From: an uncultured Candidatus Saccharibacteria bacterium
Lineage (GTDB): Bacteria; Patescibacteriota; Minisyncoccia; Phycocordibacterales; UBA2100
Reading direction: 5' to 3'
Length of the DNA stretch: 64,000 bases
Assembly (NCBI GenBank): GCA_964462785.1
Contig: CAYWZA010000001.1
Location: forward strand, 1,144 to 65,143
Under the pieces are notes generated by a model. It saw only the letters and a program-made list of their open reading frames with translations, was not told the origin of the DNA and did not search any database. The position numbers were made by a program, and so were the translations under genes. Below, piece by piece: positions 7,592-33,756 of this stretch. Numbering within the stretch: the first letter of the stretch is position 1; each line of letters begins with the position of its first letter.

Positions 7592-8383
7592 TTAAAGTAC
7601 CGTCGTCTTGTAGCGCTGGTTAATCTCAACGATTCCCTCAAAAAGCGACAGCCCCTTATCCTGACCAAGCAGCTTGTTTGCAAGAGCAGCGAAAGCTGCG
7701 GTATCTTTCGGAAGGCATGAGCCGCCAAAACCCCGGAAGTGCTTGTTGCAATCGAGATATACATCCTGCACATTACGGTGCTTAACAATGGCATTCTTGA
7801 TCTTTCTATAGTCCGCTCCTGCAGCCTCGCACACATCATAGAATTGATTCGCATATACCACACGCAACGCATTGAATACATTGAGAAAATATTTCGAAAA
7901 TTCTGCTTCGAGCGGCGTTACGATCGAAAACTGTTTCGGCAGAGGTTCGTGCACTTGTTTCAACATATCCGCATCTTCCGGCGTGTATGCCCCGATGATG
8001 CACACATCGTGATTTTCAATGAAATCGACATACATGGCTCGCTCACGCAAAAACTCTGGACAGAAAGCGAATCGCAGTGCCGGATGCCTTTTCGCCAATC
8101 GGTCGGTCGTACCGGGTTCAACAGTCGATTTAATGGTGACCAAACCGCGATATTTTTCCTGCGCCAAGCTTTCCGCCACTTTTTCCACGATCGACACATC
8201 GCATGCACCATCCTGCCCCAACGGAGTAGGAACACAGATAAAAACCAATTCTGTGCCAAGCACGTCATTAAGAGATGTCTCGGGCATTTTCACATCAAAA
8301 ATAGAGACATCGTGACCTATGCGCGTTATGCCGTGCCGCACAGCTGTCCCCACAAGCCCGACGCCGATGATTCCTACACGCAT
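7592..8383 (-). CDS. UDP-glucose/GDP-mannose 6-dehydrogenase family protein, short form lacking the C-terminal UDP-binding domain
   Basis: N-terminal NAD-binding MRVGIIGVGLVG and the catalytic-Cys motif GFGGSCLPKD. The protein ends ~40 aa after that motif (263 aa versus ~390-440 for canonical enzymes). Confidence 0.65.
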   Translation of the reverse strand: MRVGIIGVGLVGTAVRHGITRIGHDVSIFDVKMPETSLNDVLGTELVFICVPTPLGQDGACDVSIVEKVAESLAQEKYRGLVTIKSTVEPGTTDRLAKRHPALRFAFCPEFLRERAMYVDFIENHDVCIIGAYTPEDADMLKQVHEPLPKQFSIVTPLEAEFSKYFLNVFNALRVVYANQFYDVCEAAGADYRKIKNAIVKHRNVQDVYLDCNKHFRGFGGSCLPKDTAAFAALANKLLGQDKGLSLFEGIVEINQRYKTTVL

Positions 8384-10119: not shown

Positions 10120-12984
10120 TTATTCTCTACGCCGACCGGTCACGACGAACAAAGCACCCTCTGAAGCAATGTTCCCAAGCCACGAGATCTGGGTCAGGGC
10201 GCGCATGAGACCGGATCCGGAACTGGTTTCCTCAAATAGATTTGCCCCTGTCTTGCTCCCACCAGTGCCGATGATAGCTGGATGTGAATTCAAGTACTCA
10301 ACGTCATTTTCCTTAAACCACTCGAGTACTTCGCCGAGCGAATGCCATGTCTCGTGTGGATTGTAATACTGGTCTTTCACCCAAATATCCGCCTTGCGCG
10401 CATCGCGAATGCGATTGCGAACGACATAGTCGATGCGAGTCCCGAAAACCTTGATCAACTTCGAGCGTATCCAGGTGGGGATTCGCGCGTAGTTGTTGTA
10501 GAGACCAACAACGATGAGGCCGCCTGGTTTCACCTTCTTTACGATCTCCGCAAACGCCACGCGCGCATCGCGCGTGTGATGCAGGACGCCGGTCGATATT
10601 ACAACATCAAAGCTATTGTCCTGTATGCCGAGCTCAAAGATATTCATCTGCACAAAGCCGACACGATTAACGCTGTTTTTCTTCTTATGATCAACGGCTA
10701 GCTTGAGGCTCGAGAGTGAGAGGTCGACTCCGAGCACGTGATTATTGTTGAGAGAAAGGAAGTGCGACATCTGCCCAGTCCCGCATCCACATTCGAGAAT
10801 CAGCTTATTGAAGCCAATGGAGTCCAGGAGCCCTTTCGCAAACGGATTCTTCTCTCCCCGAACGACCAAATCACCGAAATTCTGCACGCCGTCGTAATTC
10901 GGGAACGGATTCTCCTCATAGAATGCTTTTATCTTGCCTGTCACCGGATCCTTTTCTGCCGATTCTACACCCGAGAGAAGAGATGGAACGCCATCTTTAT
11001 CAACGTAGGGTCCCTTCGCGGTCGTAAATGCCCCCTGCGTACGCAACACTGGGATGCTCTTGGATTCGCCTGGAACCTTCAGGCAGTCCAGGAGCGGCGC
11101 GGGTATCATGCCATCGTCTTTGGGTGCTCTCGACGGTTCGATCCTGTACTGCTCACTCTTGAGTAGGAGGACATTGCCAATAACCAGTGCGTCCATTTCC
11201 GTTTTCATAAAGCACTGGTAGGCATCGCTCGGCGTGAGAACTATCGGCTCATCGCGGACATTAAAACTGGTGTTCACGAGAAGTCCGTAGCCAGTCTTTT
11301 TCTTGAATGCGTCGAGTAGACTCCAGAAACGCTCGTTCGTCTTGCGCGAAACCGTCTGCAAACGAGCTGAATAGTCGAGGTGGGTGACCGCCGGGATATC
11401 GGAGCGCACTGCATTGAGACGCTCTTGTATGGTTCCTCTCGCGGGTGCAGCCAATCGTCGCTCTTGCTTGACCGGCGCGGTGAAGAGCATGTAAGGCGAT
11501 GGAGATCCTACTTCGAAATATTCATTCGCATCTTCCTCCAAGACAGCCGGAGCGAATGGACGGAATCCTTCTCGGTATTTTATCTTTAGGTTCAGCTTCT
11601 TTTGCATGACCGGATTACGCGCGTCAGCCAGGATGCTGCGATTACCCAAAGCTCGCGGTCCCCACTCTGCCCTTCCCTGCATCCAACCAACGATGTTACC
11701 TTCACTAAGGAGCTCCGCCGCACGTTCATACAGTTTTTCCATGCTATCGAATTGTGTGTATGATGCACCAAATCGTCGTAAGTCCTTAAGCGTCTCATCG
11801 TCAGAAAAAGAAGGACCGAGATATGAGCCCTGCATGCTGTCTGTCGCATGCCTATCGAGGGTGCGGGCGCCATCGAAATATATGTGATGAGCTACCAGTG
11901 CCGCACCCAGCGCACCCCCAGCATCGCCCGCAGCCGGCTGTACCCACACCCGATCGAATATCTTGGCGTCAAGTATCTTTTCGTTCGCAACGCAATTAAG
12001 TGCGACACCACCAGCCAAAACCAAATTATTAGCGCCCGTAAGCGTCCGTGCAGTGCGGACGAGACGCAGTAACACTTCTTCGGTCACTTCCTGTATGGCA
12101 AGCGCGAGATCCATATACTCGCTCGACAGTTCATCTCCTGCCATGCGGGGTGGGAGACCGAAGAGCTTTGTCCATTTCTCGTCATTCACGGTGCGTAGCG
12201 AGGTCGCGAACAGGAAATAGGACATGTTCAGAAAGAACGAGCCATCTTCCTTGAGATCAATGAGCTCATCGAAAATTTTCTTTTTGTATTCTTTTACGCG
12301 CATGCTTCCTCGGTTTCCATATGGTGCGAGTCCCATGAGTTTGTATTCGCCATCATTGATCGCAAAACCGCAATAGTATGTAAAAGCCGAATATAAAAGT
12401 CCGAGCGAATGCGGAAACTGCATCTCCTTGATGATGGTGACTTCTTTGTCATGCCCGCGCCCGATGGTCGTGGTCGCCCACTCGCCCACACCATCGACCG
12501 TAAGAATCGCGGCCTCTTCGAACGGCGAGGGGTAAAAAGCACTCGCCGCATGCGATATGTGATGTTCGGGAAAGAGAAGTCGTGGTTTTCTGACGAATTT
12601 CTTTCCTTCGATCTTCTCGAGCTCTTTAAGGAGCACGCTACGAATGAAGAGTTTGTCCTTGATCCATATCGGCATCGACCTCGCGAATCCCGCGAGACCT
12701 TTTGGAGCATATCGATGATACGTCTCCAGAAGACGCTCGAACTTCAGAAGCGGCTTGTCATAAAAGACTATGGCATCGAGATCCGACGGCTTGAGACCGC
12801 ACTCGGAGAGCACATAGCGAGTAGCGTGCTCAGGAAAAGAATCGTCATGCTTGCGCCTCGTGAAGCGCTCCTCGTGAGCCGCCGCAACAATCTTTCCATT
12901 TACGAGAAGTGCGGCGGCGGCATCGTGAAAATACGCCGAAACGCCGAGGATCTTCCTACCCCTTTGATCCATATTCCCCGTCAT
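10120..12984 (-). CDS. NodU/CmcH-family carbamoyltransferase fused to a C-terminal class I SAM-dependent methyltransferase
   Basis: The N-terminal ~600 aa has the carbamoyltransferase/Kae1-like architecture (ILGVSAYFHDAAAALL…HHISHAASAF…ALGNRSIL…). The C-terminal ~200 aa has ILECGCGTGQMSHFL (SAM motif I) and VVGLYNNY. Total length 954 aa. Confidence 0.8.
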   Translation of the reverse strand: MTGNMDQRGRKILGVSAYFHDAAAALLVNGKIVAAAHEERFTRRKHDDSFPEHATRYVLSECGLKPSDLDAIVFYDKPLLKFERLLETYHRYAPKGLAGFARSMPIWIKDKLFIRSVLLKELEKIEGKKFVRKPRLLFPEHHISHAASAFYPSPFEEAAILTVDGVGEWATTTIGRGHDKEVTIIKEMQFPHSLGLLYSAFTYYCGFAINDGEYKLMGLAPYGNRGSMRVKEYKKKIFDELIDLKEDGSFFLNMSYFLFATSLRTVNDEKWTKLFGLPPRMAGDELSSEYMDLALAIQEVTEEVLLRLVRTARTLTGANNLVLAGGVALNCVANEKILDAKIFDRVWVQPAAGDAGGALGAALVAHHIYFDGARTLDRHATDSMQGSYLGPSFSDDETLKDLRRFGASYTQFDSMEKLYERAAELLSEGNIVGWMQGRAEWGPRALGNRSILADARNPVMQKKLNLKIKYREGFRPFAPAVLEEDANEYFEVGSPSPYMLFTAPVKQERRLAAPARGTIQERLNAVRSDIPAVTHLDYSARLQTVSRKTNERFWSLLDAFKKKTGYGLLVNTSFNVRDEPIVLTPSDAYQCFMKTEMDALVIGNVLLLKSEQYRIEPSRAPKDDGMIPAPLLDCLKVPGESKSIPVLRTQGAFTTAKGPYVDKDGVPSLLSGVESAEKDPVTGKIKAFYEENPFPNYDGVQNFGDLVVRGEKNPFAKGLLDSIGFNKLILECGCGTGQMSHFLSLNNNHVLGVDLSLSSLKLAVDHKKKNSVNRVGFVQMNIFELGIQDNSFDVVISTGVLHHTRDARVAFAEIVKKVKPGGLIVVGLYNNYARIPTWIRSKLIKVFGTRIDYVVRNRIRDARKADIWVKDQYYNPHETWHSLGEVLEWFKENDVEYLNSHPAIIGTGGSKTGANLFEETSSGSGLMRALTQISWLGNIASEGALFVVTGRRRE

Positions 12985-12985
12985 G

Positions 12986-13135
12986 TCAGAAGATGGTGTA
13001 AATAAAGGGCGAAATGGCGCTTGTGCTACCTGCCACGATCAAGGTGCCCACAGCAAGGATCACGATAAGTGCTGGCAAGAGCCAGAACTTCTTGCGATCC
13101 CGAAGGAAACCCCATATGTCGCGTAAAAATTCCAT
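12986..13135 (-). CDS. DUF5989/SxtK-like small membrane protein (49 aa); not in the supplied ORF track
   Basis: Manual translation of the minus strand gives MEFLRDIWGFLRDRKKFWLLPALIVILAVGTLIVAGSTSAISPFIYTIF. Its stop TGA at 12986 overlaps the carbamoyltransferase ATG at 12984 (TGACATG), and it sits 13 nt downstream of the SxtJ-like gene. Confidence 0.65.
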   Translation of the reverse strand: MEFLRDIWGFLRDRKKFWLLPALIVILAVGTLIVAGSTSAISPFIYTIF

Positions 13136-13148
13136 ACAGGTGAGTATA

Positions 13149-13511
13149 CTAATAGGGACGCTCCATATCCATAGGGTCGATCATTTGATCACGAGTAACG
13201 AAGGCCGTCGAATCTTTGTTGTTGTGTGATTCATATCTCTGATCCCCCACGAGCATTCGACGCAGGTACCCAATGGAAGTGATGACCGTAAAAAATATGA
13301 GCCCAAAAAATACTCGATTCATCACGCTCCCCAGAAGGTCCGCGATCTTCAACCACAGAAACGCCACCGGCTTAAGCGCGCTCGGATAGAACACGAGTGC
13401 GATAAGGAAAAAACCGCACAGCCAAAGAAAAAGTGTATTGCCGTAGGCGCCAAGGAGAAGGAACAATAACGAGAATACAAGACCTGTGTCACGTATCCAC
13501 TTTTCAGTCAT
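13149..13511 (-). CDS. SxtJ-like small polytopic membrane protein
   Basis: ~120-aa hydrophobic protein (MTEKWIRDTGLVFSLLFLLLGAYGN…) directly upstream of the DUF5989-like ORF and the carbamoyltransferase, the arrangement expected for the SxtJ family. The ORF runs to 13607; I prefer the MTEKW start at 13511. Confidence 0.5.
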   Translation of the reverse strand: MTEKWIRDTGLVFSLLFLLLGAYGNTLFLWLCGFFLIALVFYPSALKPVAFLWLKIADLLGSVMNRVFFGLIFFTVITSIGYLRRMLVGDQRYESHNNKDSTAFVTRDQMIDPMDMERPY

Positions 13512-13575
13512 GCGGATCACACTACCACAAAAAATTGGTGTACACAGTAACGAGCATGGGGTATGATGCGAAATT

Positions 13576-14709
13576 ATGTTACAGAGATCGAAAGGTCTTC
13601 TAATCAACGGTGCCGTGCTTCTCAGTACACTCGCCGTCCTTTTCGCCGCAGGAGAGATCTATGTACGGACTATGGGGATGAGGTCTGACAAGATAATAGC
13701 CCTCAACACATGTGTCGGCTTCAAAGATAAGCCGGGGACACAAACTGTCTTCGAAACTCCTGATGGTCCCGTCACTGTTTCTATAAACAGCGCCGGCTAC
13801 CGCGACGTTGAGCATGCGGTCGCAAAAGCTCCGGATACCTATCGCATTCTCATGCTAGGCGATTCGTTTACTGAAGCACTCCAGGTGAATCTTGAGGAAG
13901 CCTTCTGGCGTAAGATGCAGAAGCAGCTGGAAGAAGAGGGTCTTAAAGTCGAGATCATGTCCATGGGCGTGTCGAGTTATGGGACTCATCAAGCGCTCAT
14001 GACATACGAATGCTACGGCCGAGAATTTAAGCCCGACATGGTTATCCTCAATTTCACCAATGCGAATGACCCTGTGGACAACTACTTCAGGCGTGATGCC
14101 TTTTCGCCACAGTTTGAACTTGCAAGCGGAACACTTTCACTTAACGAGGCATTCAGGACGAACATCGCCGCACAGCAGAAGCGCCGCTCATCGCTTCCGT
14201 GGGGACCCATCTATTGGGCGAAGGAGAACTCGAAGGCGCTTCAGTATCTCTACGACCGTGTGCAGACCATACAAGGCGAGCGTCAACTTGGCAGTACGAT
14301 CGTAGAAGGAACCAACAAGATATATCTTAAAGAATACACGCAGGAGTGGCTCAATGCCTGGGATCTGACTGACGCACTGATGCGCAGACTGATCGCCAAC
14401 GTGAAGAGTGACGGCGCGCGTTTCATACTCGTGGATATCCCAGGAGTAGAGGAGCTCGAGCCTGAACGAGTGACCGAGCCGGAAAAATATGACCTGGCAC
14501 AGGCTGACAAGCATCTGCGTACTTTTGCAGAAAAAGAAGACGTCACTTATATAAGCCTGTTCCCCGCCATCTCTGCGGCACACACACAAAAACCCGTACA
14601 CTGGCCATATGACGCGCATTGGAATCCATACGGCCACACGGTCGCCGCGCAAACAATTCTCGAAGAACTGAAGAGATTAGTTCCTCAGTTACAGCAGAAG
14701 ACACCGTAG
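13576..14709 (+). CDS. SGNH/GDSL hydrolase-fold protein with N-terminal TM anchor (AlgJ/AlgX/PatB-like O-acyltransferase partner)
   Basis: N-terminal TM helix, block I LMLGDSFTE (GDS(L) motif), and C-terminal YDAHWN (DxxH catalytic block). It lies immediately upstream of an MBOAT gene. Confidence 0.7.
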   Translation: MLQRSKGLLINGAVLLSTLAVLFAAGEIYVRTMGMRSDKIIALNTCVGFKDKPGTQTVFETPDGPVTVSINSAGYRDVEHAVAKAPDTYRILMLGDSFTEALQVNLEEAFWRKMQKQLEEEGLKVEIMSMGVSSYGTHQALMTYECYGREFKPDMVILNFTNANDPVDNYFRRDAFSPQFELASGTLSLNEAFRTNIAAQQKRRSSLPWGPIYWAKENSKALQYLYDRVQTIQGERQLGSTIVEGTNKIYLKEYTQEWLNAWDLTDALMRRLIANVKSDGARFILVDIPGVEELEPERVTEPEKYDLAQADKHLRTFAEKEDVTYISLFPAISAAHTQKPVHWPYDAHWNPYGHTVAAQTILEELKRLVPQLQQKTP

Positions 14710-14765
14710 GGGCAGCAAATCCCTACCTTTGGAAAAAAGGGGGTACTGTGATATTTTTGAAGCTC

Positions 14766-16280
14766 ATGAGCTTCGCGGATGTACGCTTTCTTGTTTTTTT
14801 TCCCGTCGTCACCGCGCTGTATGTGCTGCTACCGCAACGCTACCGCTGGATGTTTCTGCTCGTTGCAAGTTATTTCTTCTACATGCTGTGGCGCCCAGAA
14901 TATGGGCTCCTTCTCGCTCTCATAACCGTCATAGACTTTACCGCAGCGATTCTTATCGGGCGCGCACACACTGAGGTACAGCGCCGTATATTTCTTATCG
15001 CAAGCCTCGTTGCAAATCTCGGTCTCCTTTTTTACTTTAAATACCTCAATTTTGTCCTCTCTTCGTTCCAGGAAGTGTTGGCGTTTGCGGGCAACGACAT
15101 CTCATTCCCCGTGCTCAACATACTCCTGCCTATAGGTATTTCATTCCACATTTTTCAAAGCATGAGCTACACAATCGATGTGTACCGACGACGCGTCGAA
15201 CCCGTCAGGCATCTTGGTAAATTCGCTCTCTATGTCAGTTTTTTCCCGCAATTGGTCGCTGGTCCTATCGAACGTCCACAAGGGCTTCTAAAGCAGATCA
15301 TGGAAGGTCGTGCATTTGATCTCGCAAAAGCAAAGAGCGGGACCAAACTCATGTTTTGGGGTTTCTTTAAAAAACTTGTAATCGCTGATAATCTAGCGCC
15401 GCTGGTAAACGCTGCGTACGCTTCGCCAGAAAATTTTCCCGGCCCCACGCTCGCGTTCGCAACGGTGCTTTTCGCCTATCAGATCTACTGCGACTTCTCC
15501 GGTTACACCGATATCGCGCGGGGTTCGGCGCGCATACTCGGCTACGATCTCATGCTCAACTTCAATCGTCCTTTTCATGCGACATCCCTCACCGATTTTT
15601 GGAACCGGTGGCATATTTCGCTTTCAACTTGGCTACGCGATTATCTGTATTATCCGCTTGCTCTGCGTGGAAAGAACCATTCGAGGATTCGTATCTATTC
15701 GAGCGTTTTTATCACCCTGGTACTCATTGGTCTCTGGCACGGCGCCAATTGGACGTATGTCCTGTTCGGTGCTATCCACGGAGTGTATCTCGTCGTCGGC
15801 ACGGCGACGCTTGGGATGCGCAACCTCGCCTATCGTAGATTCTGGAAGCCGTTCGGTAGGATGGCGCCTCCAACATTCCTAAAGACTCTGACCGTATTCG
15901 CAATGGTTTGTTTTTCGTATATATTCTTTCGCGCGGAAACAACGGCAGACGCACTATTCATCATCGAGCGGATTCCTCAGGGTGGCGCTGAATTTCTCCA
16001 GGGACTGTGGAGCATCGAGGGGATCAAACACGTACTGGGGATGGATGTGTCCCTTTCAGGACAATGGGGATCGATGCTCTTGCCAGGTATCGTAGTCGCC
16101 ATACTTGGCATCCTGTTCATGGAGTTAATTGAGTGGCTCCACGCACACGGCAATCTCTCGAAACGACTCGCGCTTATCCCATACCGTTGGCGCCTAGTGC
16201 TCTTTGCTGTGGGCGGATTCACTATTATGACTTTCGGCGGATTTGCCACTCCACAGCAATTCATTTATTTCCAATTCTGA
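14766..16280 (+). CDS. MBOAT-family membrane-bound O-acyltransferase (AlgI/DltB/PatA-like)
   Basis: Polytopic membrane protein with the MBOAT N-terminus (MSFADVRFLVFFPVVTALYVLLP) and the conserved-His block LIGLWHGANWTYVLFG. The ORF begins at 14619 inside the upstream gene; I prefer M at 14766. Confidence 0.85.
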   Translation: MSFADVRFLVFFPVVTALYVLLPQRYRWMFLLVASYFFYMLWRPEYGLLLALITVIDFTAAILIGRAHTEVQRRIFLIASLVANLGLLFYFKYLNFVLSSFQEVLAFAGNDISFPVLNILLPIGISFHIFQSMSYTIDVYRRRVEPVRHLGKFALYVSFFPQLVAGPIERPQGLLKQIMEGRAFDLAKAKSGTKLMFWGFFKKLVIADNLAPLVNAAYASPENFPGPTLAFATVLFAYQIYCDFSGYTDIARGSARILGYDLMLNFNRPFHATSLTDFWNRWHISLSTWLRDYLYYPLALRGKNHSRIRIYSSVFITLVLIGLWHGANWTYVLFGAIHGVYLVVGTATLGMRNLAYRRFWKPFGRMAPPTFLKTLTVFAMVCFSYIFFRAETTADALFIIERIPQGGAEFLQGLWSIEGIKHVLGMDVSLSGQWGSMLLPGIVVAILGILFMELIEWLHAHGNLSKRLALIPYRWRLVLFAVGGFTIMTFGGFATPQQFIYFQF

Positions 16281-16287
16281 CAAACCT

Positions 16288-17298
16288 ATGATTACTCCTG
16301 AACAAAAAGAGTTCATGCGCTACGGGCGCGATATAGCGATTTGCGGAGTGATAATCGCACTATTATGCAGCCTCGTGATGTTGCTCAGCTACAATCCCGC
16401 TTCCTACTACAATATGATGGCCAAAGAGGTGCGTCTCGCCGCCGCACCACATCCTCGTCTTTTTGTCATCGGAGGTTCGGGAGCAGGCATCAGCATCGAT
16501 TCGGAACTCATCCAAGAAGAGACTGGGTACAACACGCTAAACATGGGCGTAAGCGCAGGCTTGGGGTTGCGATTCATGTTCAGGTCGATCGAGGATGAAC
16601 TTCGTGATGGAGACGTCGTCCTCTATTTCATGGAATCAACTGTCGTACAGCAACCACTCTACGCCGACGGCGCGGCGCTGTTTGCCACCCTCCACCCCAG
16701 CCCTAGTTATGCGCTCACGATACTCCGTGATGTTGATGTATTTACAGCACACACGATTGTAGACATGGTCCGCAAATTCCCTACATATCTACAACAACAA
16801 ACACGCGGTCTCTATATTCGAAAAATAGAGTCGCTCATATACGAACCGGAGCCCACCTTAAGCGAACGTCTTTATAACGTTTACAACTTCAACGCCTACG
16901 GAGACGTAGACTCCACCGTTGCGGGAGACAAGCACCTCTCCACAGAAGAGGTTCTGAAAAGCGACATTGGTCGTATCGGAGACCGCGGGACTGATCCCCG
17001 TACCCTAAGTCTACTCGCCGAAATGATTAGATCACTTAACGACCGTGGCGTACGTGTATTCGTTTTGTGGCCCGCATATGCGAAGGTGTTTTACGACCAA
17101 AAATTGGATCCTGTGCAGGAACGCAATAAAGAGATTGTTGAGCGACTCGGGCGCGACAACGTAATCGGAAACGTGGACGATTTCATTCTTAATGACGAAC
17201 TGTTTCTTGACCACTCCTCACACCTGACAAGCGCGGGGCGGGATGAATATACAAGGCGTCTCATCCCTTTACTCCTGCCGCATTTGAACGCAAAATAA
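16288..17298 (+). CDS. DltD/AlgJ-like SGNH-type protein with N-terminal TM anchor (third member of the O-acylation triad)
   Basis: N-terminal TM, VIGGSGAGISID block I-like, and C-terminal DHSSHLTSAG (DxxH). It lies downstream of the MBOAT. The ORF begins at 16243; I prefer MITPEQ at 16288. Confidence 0.5.
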   Translation: MITPEQKEFMRYGRDIAICGVIIALLCSLVMLLSYNPASYYNMMAKEVRLAAAPHPRLFVIGGSGAGISIDSELIQEETGYNTLNMGVSAGLGLRFMFRSIEDELRDGDVVLYFMESTVVQQPLYADGAALFATLHPSPSYALTILRDVDVFTAHTIVDMVRKFPTYLQQQTRGLYIRKIESLIYEPEPTLSERLYNVYNFNAYGDVDSTVAGDKHLSTEEVLKSDIGRIGDRGTDPRTLSLLAEMIRSLNDRGVRVFVLWPAYAKVFYDQKLDPVQERNKEIVERLGRDNVIGNVDDFILNDELFLDHSSHLTSAGRDEYTRRLIPLLLPHLNAK

Positions 17299-17302
17299 CG
17301 TC

Positions 17303-17653
17303 ATGGTGAAAGATGACATCAAGGGTGTCGGGGTTGACATGGTTGCTATCTCGCGGATGCGTCGCGTCGTCCGAGAAAAGCGCGAGCGCTTCTTAGCGAA
17401 TACCTTTAGCCCACTGGAGCGCGCATATTGTTTTTCACATAAAGATCCTGCGCCCCACTTTGCCGGGACATTTGCCGCCAAGGAGGCCGTGCGCAAGGCC
17501 ACATCTCACTACCCCGCTTTCGCCGAGCTGGAGGTGCGCCGAAGAAAAGACGGACGACCAGAGATATGGGCCCGTGGCCGTCGCGTATCTTCCATATTGA
17601 TCTCGATCACTCACACGGATACAATCGCCTGCGCGATAGCGCTCGCACAATGA
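17303..17653 (+). CDS. acpS: Holo-ACP synthase (4'-phosphopantetheinyl transferase)
   Basis: GVGVDMVAISRM at the N-terminus and FAGTFAAKEAVRKA, ~116 aa, typical AcpS. Immediately upstream of an FkbH-like gene and an ACP. Confidence 0.75.
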   Translation: MVKDDIKGVGVDMVAISRMRRVVREKRERFLANTFSPLERAYCFSHKDPAPHFAGTFAAKEAVRKATSHYPAFAELEVRRRKDGRPEIWARGRRVSSILISITHTDTIACAIALAQ

Positions 17654-17656
17654 TGT

Positions 17657-18694
17657 ATGAAAAAATGTATTGTTCTTGATTTAGACAACACCCTTTGGGG
17701 CGGCATAATTGGGGAAGATGGGCCTGCTGGCATCGCCCTTTCCCACAAAGGGAAAGGTGCTGATTTCGTCGCTTTCCAACAAGCGCTTCTTGATATGTAT
17801 GACCGCGGGATCATCCTTGCCATTAACAGCAACAACAACCCTGACGACGCACTTGATGTCATTCGCACAAATCCGAACATGATTCTTAAGGAAAAGCATT
17901 TTGCTGCACATCGCATCAATTGGAACGATAAGGCGACAAATATGCGGGAACTCGCAAAAGAGCTGAACATCGGTCTCGATTCAATGGTATTTTTTGACGA
18001 TAGTCCTACAAATCGCCACGCAGTGCGCGGACTCCTGCTGGAAGTCGAGGTTCCGGAATTACCTGAAGATCCAGCCCTCTATACGAAAACTTTGCTTGGG
18101 CTTCCCTATTTCACAGGCAAAGCCATCACCGATGAGGACAAGATGCGTGGCAACCTCTACGTGACTGAGAGGCTCCGCAAAGAAGCGCAGGGAAACTTTT
18201 CAAGTCACGAGGAGTTTTTGAAAAGCCTCGGTCTCGAAGTACATGTCTTTCGCAACGACAACGAATCGCTTGAACGCCTTGCGCAACTCACCGAAAAAAC
18301 GAACCAATTTAATACCAACAAGCGCCCCTTATCTGTTGACGAGGTCCGAACTATCGTCGAGAGCGCCACACATGATGTGTTCCACGCCCGAGTGACCGAT
18401 CGGTTCGGCGACTACGGTATCACGGCAGTCGCATTCATCGAAAAACTTGGAAATCGGTGGCATATCGACACCCTCTTGATGAGTTGTCGAGTCCTCGGGC
18501 GCGGCATCGAACAGTCGTTCATGCGAGCCATTGCCACTGCCGCTGAAAAAGAAGGTGTGCATACTATCACCATCACATTCACGCCCACTGAGAAAAATGC
18601 CCCAGCGCGAACTTTTATTGAAAGCACTTTTACCGATGAAAAATTAATTACTTCGGAGACAGAGCTCCCTCCATGGATTACACTACAAGTATGA
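17657..18694 (+). CDS. FkbH-like HAD-IIIC domain protein (predicted glyceryl/acyl-ACP loading enzyme)
   Basis: N-terminal VLDLDNTLWGG (HAD subfamily IIIC/FkbH signature) plus a ~150-aa C-terminal GNAT-like/acyltransferase region. Confidence 0.7.
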   Translation: MKKCIVLDLDNTLWGGIIGEDGPAGIALSHKGKGADFVAFQQALLDMYDRGIILAINSNNNPDDALDVIRTNPNMILKEKHFAAHRINWNDKATNMRELAKELNIGLDSMVFFDDSPTNRHAVRGLLLEVEVPELPEDPALYTKTLLGLPYFTGKAITDEDKMRGNLYVTERLRKEAQGNFSSHEEFLKSLGLEVHVFRNDNESLERLAQLTEKTNQFNTNKRPLSVDEVRTIVESATHDVFHARVTDRFGDYGITAVAFIEKLGNRWHIDTLLMSCRVLGRGIEQSFMRAIATAAEKEGVHTITITFTPTEKNAPARTFIESTFTDEKLITSETELPPWITLQV

Positions 18695-18921
18695 AAAGCT
18701 TCAACGATATCGTTTTCGAACAACTCCATATCCCCAAGGAGGAGATTCAAGATACTTTGACCCCTAGTGACGTAGAGAATTGGGACTCCATGAATTATCT
18801 ACTCTTCATCGCGGAACTCGAAAAAGAATATAGCATCTCGTTCACAATGGACGAAGTGTTGTCTGCTCAATCATTGGGCGCAGTACGCACCATCGTGCAG
18901 GGAAAAGGAGTGACTGTATGA
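18691..18921 (+). CDS. Acyl carrier protein
   Basis: ~76 aa with the WDSMNYLLFIAELEKEY phosphopantetheine-attachment Ser motif (DSM). Its ATG at 18691 overlaps the FkbH-like stop (ATGA). The ORF track starts it at 18673. Confidence 0.75.
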   Translation: MKSFNDIVFEQLHIPKEEIQDTLTPSDVENWDSMNYLLFIAELEKEYSISFTMDEVLSAQSLGAVRTIVQGKGVTV

Positions 18922-19334
18922 ACGCCGCCGATCGTTCGTTCGAGTCGCTCATGGTCGGAGAGACTCACGCGGAAGAACATCATATAGATGAGCGTATGGT
19001 TGCGGCGTTTGCCGAACTCTCAGGTGATAAAAATCCCCTCCACACCGATGAAAGCTACGCGGCAACGACACCACTCAAGAGACCCGTTGCTCACGGCATG
19101 CTCTTGGGTGCACTGGTTTCCGAGATGGTCGGCATGCACATCCCTGGCAAGCGCTGCCTTATCGTCAAAATGTCACTATCGTTCCACCATCCAATATTCC
19201 CAGGAGATACCGTGCGTATCATAGGTACTATTGTGCACAAAAGCGAGGCGCTCCAGCTCCTTGAGATTAGTGTATCCGCAATGCGCGCGGATGAACTCGT
19301 TGCTGAGGGTATCGTACACACAAAAGTATTATGA
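18918..19334 (+). CDS. MaoC-like (hot-dog fold) dehydratase
   Basis: NPLHTDESYA matches the MaoC/(R)-hydratase motif (NPIHxDxxYA); ~138 aa, hot-dog size. Confidence 0.7.
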   Translation: MNAADRSFESLMVGETHAEEHHIDERMVAAFAELSGDKNPLHTDESYAATTPLKRPVAHGMLLGALVSEMVGMHIPGKRCLIVKMSLSFHHPIFPGDTVRIIGTIVHKSEALQLLEISVSAMRADELVAEGIVHTKVL

Positions 19335-20047
19335 AAAAGGAACGGAAACCGATTGCGCTTCTCACTGGTGGTTCCGGCTATGTCGGCACCGCTATCGCGC
19401 AAGAGCTCATCCGCCGCAACTTTCTTCCTATACTTCTCTCACGAAACCCGATCGCATTCGATGGTGCCGAGACTCGTTCATGTAACATTAGCAATGAGCG
19501 CGCGCTTGAATCGATTATAGAAGGCATCGTGGGTACGCATGGGCACATCGATGCCTGCATACATGCCGCGGTCGCGGCAACAACGAGAACAGCGCTCCTC
19601 GATACGCCTTCGGAAGCATTCGAAAATGAATTTTCCGTCTCGGTGCGTGGCGCATTTTTACTCGCCAAATATGCCGTGCCACACATGCCGAAGGATTCGA
19701 CATTCATCGGTATTACCACAGTGTCGATTGAAAAAGAAAAGCCTGACAGCCGCATCGGCGCATATCTGCCAGCGAAGCAAGCGCTCCGCACCCTGCTACG
19801 TGTACTCGCGACTGAACTCGTCTCGAAACGGATACGTGTCTACGCGGTAGCGCCACCTGTCCTCCCCGGCGGACTCAACAACAGCCTGCCTGAACCCGTC
19901 CGCAATCTCCTTTCAAGACAGAGCGATGGCAGCACTGCTTCAGCGGATGATGTCGCCCACATCGTAGCGGATTTATGCATAGACGCCACCGCTTTCCCGT
20001 CGGGAGTGTCGATTACCTCACCCTCGCGGGCTATCGCCTCATTGTAG
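19331..20047 (+). CDS. SDR-family reductase (ketoacyl-ACP-reductase-like)
   Basis: LLTGGSGYVGTAIA Rossmann motif and YLPAKQA (YxxxK). Confidence 0.7.
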   Translation: MKKERKPIALLTGGSGYVGTAIAQELIRRNFLPILLSRNPIAFDGAETRSCNISNERALESIIEGIVGTHGHIDACIHAAVAATTRTALLDTPSEAFENEFSVSVRGAFLLAKYAVPHMPKDSTFIGITTVSIEKEKPDSRIGAYLPAKQALRTLLRVLATELVSKRIRVYAVAPPVLPGGLNNSLPEPVRNLLSRQSDGSTASADDVAHIVADLCIDATAFPSGVSITSPSRAIASL

Positions 20048-31515: not shown

Positions 31516-31608
31516 GGTGCGGATGCTAAATAGTACCATGGCCACGTGTTCTGGACACCTCATACAATTCCCCCTTATACTCACCTCGTGGGTCTTTTTA
31601 TCTCTTTG

Positions 31609-33756
31609 ATGCTTGCTGCGATAGGCTGTGCCACCCTCAGTGCCTCCATAGTACTCGCCTCTTATGGTGCCAACGAAAGCCCTCTCGCAACGCTCTTTAT
31701 CGAGGGAGCGCGTGGGACACTATTCGAGACTAGTATCTTTCTCTTCGTGTGCGCAACTCTGTTTCTCGCATATGCCCTTTCGGCAAGCTTTCGACGCACA
31801 GTGCGCGCGGTATTTGGAAAAACTGATCACCTTTACCAATCCCTGCCGCCCAACACTCGTCTCATTCTGCTATTTTCCTGCGCTCTAGGATTGCTATTTT
31901 CATTGAATGCGGCGGGGATTGTCTATGGATATTTCCATTCAGACGATTTTTCTATGACCGCGCGCGTCGCTATGCATTCATGGGGAGAGCTTATTTGGAT
32001 GCCCTACAGTCAACATGCAATGCCTTTAAACTGGGTCGAGACGTCTTTGTTTTACCACATATTCGGGACGAATCCGCTGCCTTACAACCTATTCCTACTG
32101 CTTATCATCGCATCTCTGCCTTTTGCAGGATTCCTATTCTTGAGGGAACTTGGCTACGGTCGCACGTCATTCTGTATTCTATTTTCTTTATTTGGAACAT
32201 CCGTTATCGCGAGTGAATTTCTTGCTGGGTTTTATGCTCTAGCCATATACCCGCAGGTACTTCTGTTTTTCCTAATCGCACTGTGGACGTATGTCCGCTC
32301 ATACACTTCAGCGAAATATAGACGGCTGCTCCTTTTTATATCGTTACTCTTCATTTTCGCCGCAACATTTTTTGATATCTCAGGCATTTGGACTTCTGGC
32401 GCTTACGTATTGTTCGCATACACACATTGGGTCGCCCGAGGTGGTCAGTGGTCACCCGCAACATTCATCCGTGGCAATACAATTGCAACCACGGGCGCTT
32501 TTTTGATATTTATCACGTATGGACTGTACCTTGTCCAGCTTGCCACAATACAACCCGAGCAATTTCTTGGCAGTGGACAGCCTCTATCCCTGGGGTTGTT
32601 TAAGCAAATGTATGATGTGTATACCGCCGGCACAATCGCCCAACTTTTCCTGCCAAGCGCAGGACTGATTGTAAGTCAACCGCGCTTCCTGCCCTTTTTA
32701 TCCTTGTGGACAATTCTCATGGTGTTTTTGTTTGTTTGTTTTGCAATTCTTTTTTATACGTTTGTACGCCACGCTAATCCCAAAACCCGTGCATACGGGA
32801 TTTTCGTTCTACTTCTTATGCTTGGGACCGGCTTGCTCACGGCACTTGGCCGACCGACAACGCATCCTGCCGCTTTTTTTCCTGTACAACAAATCATTAT
32901 GCCGTTCTTTTGGCTGTGCGTACTCCTCACCATAATGGCGTGCGAGTATGTCCATACCGGTATAGGGGAGGAGCGCACTAAGCGCATTATGGCGGTGCTC
33001 TTGAGTATCATCTTGATCGTATCCGCACAGCATGTATTTGCTTTCTACAAAAACCAAAATGTGCAGGAGGTGTTGGACAGTAAACACAATGTGGAACGAT
33101 TGCAGAATCTGCTTGTACCCGCCCTCAATGAACTCGCCGCGCAAACGAATGATGTGGTCTTTGTGCCGGATGTACGCGGATCGTATATTAATCCGTTTTT
33201 ATTTGGCAAAGACGCCTCCCAGTATCGAGCGTTTCTGAATCTCAGCGACAATATAGCATTCACCGATGTGCGCCACGGTCCGTATGCAGCCTCGACAAGT
33301 CATTATTTTACTGAAGCATTGCAGACGGATGACCGCCTCCGTTCAATATACCTCGCTAATGCTGAAATAGAGGTTGGGTACGGCACTGAACGCATTCAGG
33401 GCACGCAGATACAATTTATCAGTGACGGGACCCGCACTATCGTATTGCAACCACGGACGGTCGACCCACTCAAACAGTATTGGCTCGCTATCGATGTGAG
33501 TGTTCCTGTAGAGCATGAAAAAACCTACCTCCAAATCGGCTTTGGCAATCCCATTAGCAAAGACGCTATGGTTACCATACGACTCGACCAATACAGCAAA
33601 CCACTCCCTGGCGTCACGAAACGCTACACAATTCTTATTGATCTTAATCAAAGTTATGCATTTGCCCTCTCACCACGCGTCACTGATGTAACAATTACTT
33701 TTGCAACTCCGGGGGGGTATACTGTGCACGGATATCGCTTTGCGGAAGTGTTGTAG
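31609..33756 (+). CDS. Polytopic GT-C-type membrane glycosyltransferase candidate (ArnT/PMT/GtrC-like) with large C-terminal extracytoplasmic domain
   Basis: ~12 predicted TM helices in the first ~480 aa followed by a ~250-aa soluble domain. It is divergent from a GtrB-like gene and convergent with a GtrA-like gene. The start is either 31546 (ORF) or the internal M at 31609. Confidence 0.5.
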   Translation: MLAAIGCATLSASIVLASYGANESPLATLFIEGARGTLFETSIFLFVCATLFLAYALSASFRRTVRAVFGKTDHLYQSLPPNTRLILLFSCALGLLFSLNAAGIVYGYFHSDDFSMTARVAMHSWGELIWMPYSQHAMPLNWVETSLFYHIFGTNPLPYNLFLLLIIASLPFAGFLFLRELGYGRTSFCILFSLFGTSVIASEFLAGFYALAIYPQVLLFFLIALWTYVRSYTSAKYRRLLLFISLLFIFAATFFDISGIWTSGAYVLFAYTHWVARGGQWSPATFIRGNTIATTGAFLIFITYGLYLVQLATIQPEQFLGSGQPLSLGLFKQMYDVYTAGTIAQLFLPSAGLIVSQPRFLPFLSLWTILMVFLFVCFAILFYTFVRHANPKTRAYGIFVLLLMLGTGLLTALGRPTTHPAAFFPVQQIIMPFFWLCVLLTIMACEYVHTGIGEERTKRIMAVLLSIILIVSAQHVFAFYKNQNVQEVLDSKHNVERLQNLLVPALNELAAQTNDVVFVPDVRGSYINPFLFGKDASQYRAFLNLSDNIAFTDVRHGPYAASTSHYFTEALQTDDRLRSIYLANAEIEVGYGTERIQGTQIQFISDGTRTIVLQPRTVDPLKQYWLAIDVSVPVEHEKTYLQIGFGNPISKDAMVTIRLDQYSKPLPGVTKRYTILIDLNQSYAFALSPRVTDVTITFATPGGYTVHGYRFAEVL

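Follow-up and report, generated by a model that had tools for sequence, protein, structure and literature searches.

A carbamoyltransferase–methyltransferase fusion with two small membrane partners in a saccharibacterial glycan locus: a variant of an apparently pan-bacterial module of the sxtI/sxtJ/sxtK kind

What do two small membrane proteins contribute to the carbamoyltransferase beside which they are encoded? This question is raised by a locus of an uncultured Candidatus Saccharibacteria bacterium (contig CAYWZA010000001.1), from which a stretch of 64,000 nucleotides (nt), hereafter referred to as the window, was analyzed. Open reading frames (ORFs) were read by an ORF scan, and domains were assigned with Pfam and NCBIfam hidden Markov models (HMMs). 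Three co-directional minus-strand genes, all of them claimed in an initial annotation of this DNA and all present in the scan, encode a small polytopic membrane protein (J), a single-pass membrane protein of 49 amino acids (aa; K), and a carbamoyltransferase (CT) fused to a methyltransferase (MT) that depends on S-adenosylmethionine (SAM). The fusion protein is denoted CT::MT. The trio is of a known but never characterized kind, that of sxtI, sxtJ and sxtK in the saxitoxin clusters, and is represented here by an MT-fusion variant. New in this study are the linkage statistics across phyla, the Rosetta-stone evidence concerning the MT, and the reassignment of a neighboring SGNH gene to the module.

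With each GTDB species represented by one genome, a scan found at least 592 relatives of CT, of which the best 80 loci were kept for comparison. These originated from Acidobacteriota, Bacteroidota, Nitrospirota, Alpha-, Beta-, Gamma- and deltaproteobacteria including SAR11, Cyanobacteria, Verrucomicrobia, Planctomycetota, Fibrobacterota, Ignavibacteriota, Bacillota, and others; in most of them, CT was 55–63% identical to the window protein. HMMs for J and K were built from relatives and searched against the six-frame ORFs of the 80 loci. J was located beside CT in 78 loci and K in 76, always adjoining CT, and, with the window counted in, both shared the strand of CT in 80 of the 81 sources. 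The small partners, which had been described as obligate, accompany this CT subfamily nearly without exception. The gene order varied and included J-K-CT, CT-J-K, CT-K-J, and K-J-CT. Because the genes stayed linked despite this permutation, selection rather than shared operon ancestry appears to keep them together, and a linkage that survives rearrangement points to a functional unit. Hence, the comparison suggests that CT, J and K constitute a pan-bacterial module of the same kind as sxtI/sxtJ/sxtK.

In papers of 2009–2010, the saxitoxin genes sxtI, sxtJ and sxtK were presumed to work as one unit (PMC2679770, PMC2885083), and Pfam contains a family for each of the two small proteins. The trio was therefore not undescribed, as the initial annotation had assumed, while its statement that the small proteins have no assigned biochemical function still holds. 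The sxt genes resemble those of the window in encoding a NodU-type CT, an SxtJ-family membrane protein (~130 aa), an ORF of ~54 aa, and a GDSL/SGNH protein. They differ in that the window order is J-K-CT instead of I-J-K, in that the window genes lie in a glycan locus and not in an alkaloid pathway, and in that the window CT carries an MT. The likeness of SxtK to K consists of size (165 bp; PMC2679770) and of the place beside an sxtJ-like gene, and of these alone. The fourth saxitoxin gene, sxtL, encodes a GDSL lipase with a proposed role in decarbamoylation and follows sxtI, sxtJ and sxtK in the gene tables (PMC2679770, PMC2684587); its likeness to the SGNH gene of the window is one of class and position. 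In the Lyngbya wollei cluster, sxtI is truncated and sxtL is missing (PMC3037375).

K matched DUF5989 (PF19451) over its full length (positions 1–49 of 49; 80.6 bits against a cut-off of 27, E 8.4e-23), in agreement with its first assignment. Its N-terminus is charged (RDRKK), a single hydrophobic helix is present, and the C-terminal PFIYT(I/L)F is conserved. The family consensus (M.FLKDLW.FLKERKKFWLLPIIIVLLL.G.LIVL..GSA.APFIYTLF) was highly conserved across phyla, to an extent that appears unusual for a 49-aa membrane peptide. The SxtJ assignment of J was upheld by its relatives but not by the protein itself: all eight scanned J homologues (47–69% identity) matched SxtJ (PF19588; best E 4e-6), whereas J had no Pfam or NCBIfam match of its own and PF19588 was absent even at E 10. 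J is thus probably a somewhat divergent SxtJ-family member. Its AlphaFold2 model was all-helical (helices 3–22, 26–41 and 43–88), followed by a disordered tail with a conserved motif at its C-terminus, and a Foldseek search with this model yielded no PDB match. The members of the J family are less conserved than K; they have three or four helices of hydrophobic character, a basic stretch (RR..GKD) that looks cytoplasmic, and a conserved aromatic residue at the end of the tail. This family comprised 5134 representatives at 50% clustering; the 150 best-scoring ones were all 79–188 aa long, without larger fusions among them. Natural K::CT or J fusions were also sought among the homologues, and the longer homologues showed N-terminal extensions only. 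NCBIfam contained no model for J or K, and a search for DUF5989 in the literature library used yielded no paper.

The three genes are tightly packed. J starts with the ATG at 13511, its first residues (MTEKW) marking the start found in all homologues, and a reading of the DNA gave a gap of 13 nt between J and K. An overlap of the K stop codon with the next start codon, as originally proposed, is absent: the TGA of K (12988..12986) and the ATG of CT::MT (12984..12982) abut, with one spacer base at 12985. K was uncalled in the public annotation, as the Logan copy of the contig contains no K gene call, and its exact sequence had no match in a protein collection of 5.8 billion clusters. Therefore, gene callers truly missed K here; the ORF track behind the initial annotation had missed it as well. 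The nearest named relatives of CT and J are proteins from metagenome-assembled genomes of Patescibacteria/Paceibacterota (69% identity for CT, 48% for J).

Pfam recognized Carbam_trans_N (aa 11–363; E 5.7e-90, 302.6 bits against a cut-off of 24) and then Carbam_trans_C (aa 423–608; E 1e-71, 240.4 bits against 27) in CT, in keeping with the NodU/CmcH-type identity assigned at the outset. The best NCBIfam match was NodU (NF041651; E 5e-48); its 164 bits are far below the equivalog cut-off of 1000, so that CT is a relative within the NodU family and no NodU orthologue. Relatives in the PDB were NovN, GdmN and TobZ (E 1e-90 to 1e-79). These share the two-domain fold family of the window CT, and differ from it in being soluble, stand-alone enzymes with a separate MT protein and without J/K partners. 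In a 17-sequence alignment, H20, D21, H141, H142, H145, D164, D354 and G442–S450 were invariant except for N448. The mapping of H141, H142, H145, D164 and D354 to the metal site of TobZ was taken from family knowledge instead of a superposition. The last of these segments is the GPRALGNRS motif (aa 442–450 of the fusion protein), and a motif of this type was named as the putative catalytic site of SxtI (bioRxiv 10.64898/2026.06.11.731795). From the PDB relatives and the intact metal-site residues and motif, we predict with good confidence that CT is a carbamoyl-phosphate/ATP-dependent O-carbamoyltransferase.

Two segments of CT (aa 103–114 and 509–523; nt ~12643..12678 and 11416..11460) are missing from NovN and GdmN. 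All 80 J/K-linked CTs have them, in partly conserved form (P.W..K motif), which makes them candidate sites of partner contact. An amphipathic membrane helix at aa 103–114 was ruled out, as the hydrophobic moment of this insert was just 0.08–0.20. In two loci, a second CT paralogue adjoins the J/K-linked CT (L006, 6004..7683; L055, 9512..11314; E ~1e-100 to 1e-92 against the profile) and, judged by these profile scores, is much more divergent than the latter.

The C-terminal part of the fusion protein matched Methyltransf_11 (aa 730–826; E 3.8e-23, 82.4 bits against a cut-off of 21.2) and contains SAM motif I (LECGCGTGQ, aa 730–738), which confirms the predicted class I SAM methyltransferase. 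AlphaFold2, run on the 17-sequence alignment, modeled CT::MT as one folded chain (pLDDT 76, pTM 0.73). The same architecture recurred in 45 of the 120 best-scoring database relatives listed. Such fusions are deposited in the databases under generic names, and no published description of them was found. An assembly or frameshift artefact as the source of the fusion or of the 49-aa ORF, a concern voiced in the initial annotation, can be dismissed as practically negligible: full-length CT::MT relatives of 932–1003 aa with 46–80% identity stem from many independent assemblies, and K is intact in relatives (61–84% identical) and called in two of them (L082 and L083).

Between the CT and MT domains, aa 630–680 (nt ~10945..11097) form a degenerate Trm112-like zinc ribbon. 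Trm112p (PF03966) was recorded for two homologues (P0089 and P0108), and the linker of distant fusions has the consensus CxxCG...DGIPxL, of which the cysteines were lost in the clade of the window protein (FTTAKGPYVDKDGVPSLL). The MT subfamily, including this linker and a C-terminal extension, also occurs as a separate gene beside the module, namely between J and K (L011), just after CT (L024 and L047), or just before it (L065). The MTs of these four loci and of the distant fusions were 32–45% identical to the window MT. In a neighbor-joining tree, the seven-member window clade nested among stand-alone CTs; its CT domain was 63–70% identical to those and 53–62% identical to the other, larger fusion group. 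The gene order differed as well, being J-K-CT::MT in the window clade and CT::MT-J-K in the other group. Both observations suggest that the fusion arose at least twice or, alternatively, that fission occurred repeatedly. An MT that is fused in some genomes and a separate neighbor in others is a classic Rosetta-stone sign of functional coupling between CT and MT. Comparable pairings are known. In novobiocin biosynthesis, one sugar is O-methylated by NovP and O-carbamoylated by NovN, and in rhizobial Nod-factor synthesis the carbamoyltransferase NodU and the SAM methyltransferase NodS modify one and the same end of the oligosaccharide. Unlike the window genes, the nod genes are without membrane partners, and the window protein scored below the cut-offs of both NodU and NodS (PF05401; 17.6 bits against a gathering score of 24).

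With a probability of roughly one half, we propose that a glycan intermediate is the target of both carbamoylation and methylation by the module, on the cytoplasmic side of the membrane, and that J and K recruit or activate CT. J and K would hold or activate the soluble CT::MT at this face. CT would make carbamoyl-AMP and pass its carbamoyl group on to a hydroxyl of a sugar in a glycan intermediate that this locus assembles and that is bound to the membrane, being polyprenyl-linked or nascent. The fused MT would methylate the same or a neighboring residue. The product may be an O-carbamoylated and methylated surface polysaccharide, as had been suggested before. Since SAM chemistry is cytoplasmic and an MT fused to CT should share its substrate, access to the acceptor is most likely from the cytoplasm, and the dedicated membrane partners suggest that it is membrane-bound, for example a polyprenyl-linked or nascent glycan.

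A fourth gene repeatedly accompanied the module. The gene divergent from J in the window encodes an SGNH protein (Lipase_GDSL_2, E 2.5e-12; ALGX, E 4.3e-8) with conserved catalytic residues Ser97, Asp346 and His348, and a PDB sequence search gave marginal esterase and AlgJ matches only. In several loci, a gap of ~1.1 kb between CT and K-J encodes a related membrane-anchored GDSL/SGNH protein; the embedded orders were CT-SGNH-K-J and J-SGNH-K-CT. A single-sequence phmmer search detected 31 ORFs of this family across the 80 loci. With an iterated profile, the family was found in 44 loci, in 37 of which it was no more than 300 bp away from the module or lay within it (~34 adjacent after dropping long or weak hits, which are perhaps other SGNH classes). 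Loci with this neighbor include L019, L020, L025, L034, L036, L060 and L073. The family was adjacent to the module in 9 of 12 MT-containing loci and, upon clustering of neighboring ORFs, was the sole recurrent one (32 loci, versus 10 for the next, a GT4 glycosyltransferase). In the closest long relatives (L082 and L083, whose fusion is 73–75% identical), the gene divergent from J also belonged to it (profile E ~1e-37). The GDS serine was 100% conserved within the family, block III Asn/Asp and the Asp-x-His pair were kept, and 44 of 46 members had an N-terminal hydrophobic anchor. The SGNH protein is thus a probable facultative fourth member, and given the facultative nature of both neighbors, the unit is better regarded as a core of CT, J and K to which SGNH and MT are facultative additions. 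In the proposed cytoplasmic-face scheme, the anchored periplasmic SGNH protein would most likely act as an editor once export has taken place, removing or relocating the carbamoyl group or a different ester.

The recurrence of the SGNH gene, often embedded in the module, would also fit a carbamoyl relay across the membrane, in which CT passes the group via J and K to the periplasmic SGNH protein, which then carbamoylates an exported polysaccharide. Such a relay would be the carbamoyl analogue of O-acetylation by MBOAT/AT3-SGNH systems (AlgI/J/X, PatA/B, OatA), and the four-part, envelope-spanning unit of CT, SxtJ, DUF5989 and SGNH would later have been co-opted as sxtI/J/K/L for saxitoxin. The AlgX-type Pfam matches, the conserved Ser/Asp/His and the outward-facing anchor of the SGNH protein are in line with this idea, as is the near-invariant, Tyr-containing C-terminus of K on the predicted outer side. 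The general design, with a cytoplasmic donor, one or more membrane components, and an anchored periplasmic SGNH protein, is indeed shared with AlgI/AlgJ/AlgX, PatA/PatB, OatA and DltB/DltD. However, J and K are unrelated to MBOAT/AT3 proteins and much smaller, the group handled would be carbamoyl, and the SGNH gene is facultative: no SGNH gene was detected by the iterated profile in the 6-kb flanks of 36 of the 80 loci, while J and K were nearly universal. Moreover, J and K together offer just ~4–5 helices and no recognizable catalytic residues, and J lacked a fold match. Carbamoyl-serine enzymes are typically long-lived dead ends, as known from the carbamate inhibition of serine hydrolases, and the fused cytoplasmic SAM methyltransferase argues for an acceptor on the cytoplasmic side. 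We therefore regard the relay, including its co-option for saxitoxin, as distinctly unlikely.

The initial annotation had filed the SGNH gene with an MBOAT triad. If this assignment were correct, the SGNH protein would serve only the downstream MBOAT/acyl carrier protein (ACP) acylation system, and its place beside J would be a coincidence. In the Logan gene calls of the contig, SGNH and MBOAT genes are co-directional and ~57 bp apart, MBOAT and SGNH pairs are a known design, and genes for an ACP, a phosphopantetheinyl transferase (PPTase) and an FkbH-like enzyme follow. Yet no homologue of the window MBOAT was detected in the 80 CT loci by single-sequence phmmer, whereas SGNH was adjacent in ~34–37 of them, and in both L082 and L083 the SGNH gene is likewise transcribed divergently from J, with no MBOAT in their gene listings. 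Among all these loci, MBOAT and this SGNH are adjacent in the window alone. On this evidence, the grouping with the MBOAT triad was revised, and a role confined to acylation is unlikely.

Several points weigh against the cytoplasmic-face scheme. To our knowledge, NovN, TobZ and NodU function without J/K-like partners. The same holds for WapO (PA5005) of Pseudomonas aeruginosa, which resembles the window CT as a NodU-family CT presumed to decorate an envelope glycan, the lipopolysaccharide core (PMC13552734); its operon (wapO-wapH-mig14-dnpA) differs from the window in having neither SxtJ or DUF5989 genes nor an MT fusion. The CT segments at aa 103–114 and 509–523 are not amphipathic, and no membrane- or partner-docking surface was thus identified in them. 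The SGNH gene adjoins the module in under half of the loci and is followed in the window by the co-directional MBOAT gene, so that it could serve the MBOAT system instead. Furthermore, the saxitoxin acceptor is a soluble small molecule, and a lipid-linked acceptor is therefore no general requirement of the module.

This last point also favors another explanation, according to which the substrate of CT would be soluble, either a nucleotide sugar or a small secondary metabolite, and J and K would take no part in catalysis but serve as regulators, stabilizers, or export-related accessories. The soluble substrates of the characterized relatives NovN, GdmN and TobZ agree with it, as does the listing of sxtJ and sxtK as ‘Regulatory’ in a saxitoxin review (PMC7073992). 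The glycan-assembly context in the window and its relatives (glycosyltransferases, sugar-nucleotide enzymes, GtrA, PMT_2) speaks against it. In addition, co-directional linkage in nearly all sources with permuted gene order suits subunits better than regulators, and domains for the binding of DNA or ligands are absent from both J and K. A soluble substrate is possible, although on the unlikely side, and we retain action on a membrane-bound glycan intermediate as the preferred reading.

The module is embedded in a large glycan locus, as the initial annotation had recognized. Glycan genes lie on both sides of it, and the locus encodes a GDP-mannose dehydratase, epimerases, sugar dehydrogenases, an AsnB-type amidotransferase, a WavE-like protein, glycosyltransferases of families GT2, GT4 and GT11, and FkbM- and C-methyltransferases. 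Glycan genes also accompany the module in L082 and L083. Downstream of the SGNH gene, seven co-directional genes (Table 1) resemble a Dlt-like system in which a glycan is O-acylated with the help of a carrier protein, possibly by addition of a hydroxyacyl or glyceryl group. A promoter and terminator scan that covered the region between J and the SGNH gene found nothing above shuffle expectation, and Rfam detected no RNA genes in the window.

Table 1 Features of the carbamoyltransferase module and the adjoining genes in the window (positions in nt; strand as + or −).
Feature	Position	Strand	Basis
J: SxtJ-family small polytopic membrane protein, 120 aa	13149..13511	-	ORF scan and PF19588 matches of homologues
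K: DUF5989 single-pass membrane protein, 49 aa	12986..13135	-	PF19451
CT::MT: carbamoyltransferase, degenerate Trm112-like linker and class I SAM methyltransferase, 954 aa	10120..12984	-	Pfam
CT portion, aa 11–608: Kae1-like N domain (11–363), YrdC-like C domain (423–608)	11161..12954	-	
Linker, aa 609–725 (Trm112-like remnant), and MT, aa 726–954, with conserved C-terminal extension	10123..11160	-	
Membrane-anchored SGNH/GDSL (AlgX-like) hydrolase or transferase, divergent from J	13576..14709	+	Pfam
Divergent intergenic region between J and the SGNH gene, 64 bp	13512..13575	.	
Seven co-directional genes, MBOAT to SDR	14619..20047	+	
MBOAT, then 351-aa protein without assigned family (in 14619..20047 set)		+	
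Holo-ACP synthase (PPTase)	17303..17653	+	
FkbH-like HAD phosphatase	17657..18694	+	
ACP, 82 aa, PP-binding	18673..18921	+	
MaoC dehydratase and SDR, last in 14619..20047 set		+	

Further genes of the locus deserve mention. A minus-strand ORF resembling UDP-glucose/GDP-mannose dehydrogenases (7592..8383) has only 263 aa, lacks ~75 positions at the start of the NAD-binding profile as well as the entire UDP-binding domain, and may be truncated, frameshifted, or mis-started; L082 and L083 have a 651-aa dehydrogenase-GT4 fusion in its place. A 736-aa ORF without Pfam match (31546..33756, plus strand) may encode a polymerase or GT-C-like membrane protein, and a 990-aa protein with weak Ig-like and lamin-tail matches only (37039..40011, minus strand) may be a surface protein. 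In L082 and L083, GtrA-like, PMT_2 (ArnT-like GT-C) and UbiA genes lie beside the module, which hints at a polyprenyl-phosphate-sugar route; no such matches were obtained among the window ORFs scanned.

Ever since the saxitoxin papers of 2009–2010, the entry for SxtJ and SxtK has read ‘unknown’, and SxtJ-like and DUF5989 proteins now emerge as near-universal partners of one highly conserved CT subfamily. Culturable bacteria among the carriers are Lacibacter sp. MH-610 (L019, with the order CT-SGNH-K-J), Pseudodesulfovibrio pelocollis (L012), Reyranella aquatilis (L048), Magnetospirillum sp. UT-4 (L064) and Melioribacter sp. (L066). DUF5989 genes are easily overlooked by gene callers, as happened on this contig. 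The links to SGNH and MT genes provide concrete hypotheses for the carbamoylation of surface glycans, a little-studied modification that may affect charge, recognition by phages or the immune system, or polymyxin resistance (compare WapO). The finding is unsurprising in kind, but since the two partners are nearly universal across phyla, the role of SxtJ and SxtK can be addressed in culturable, non-toxic organisms, which makes this long-standing question testable in ordinary bacteria.

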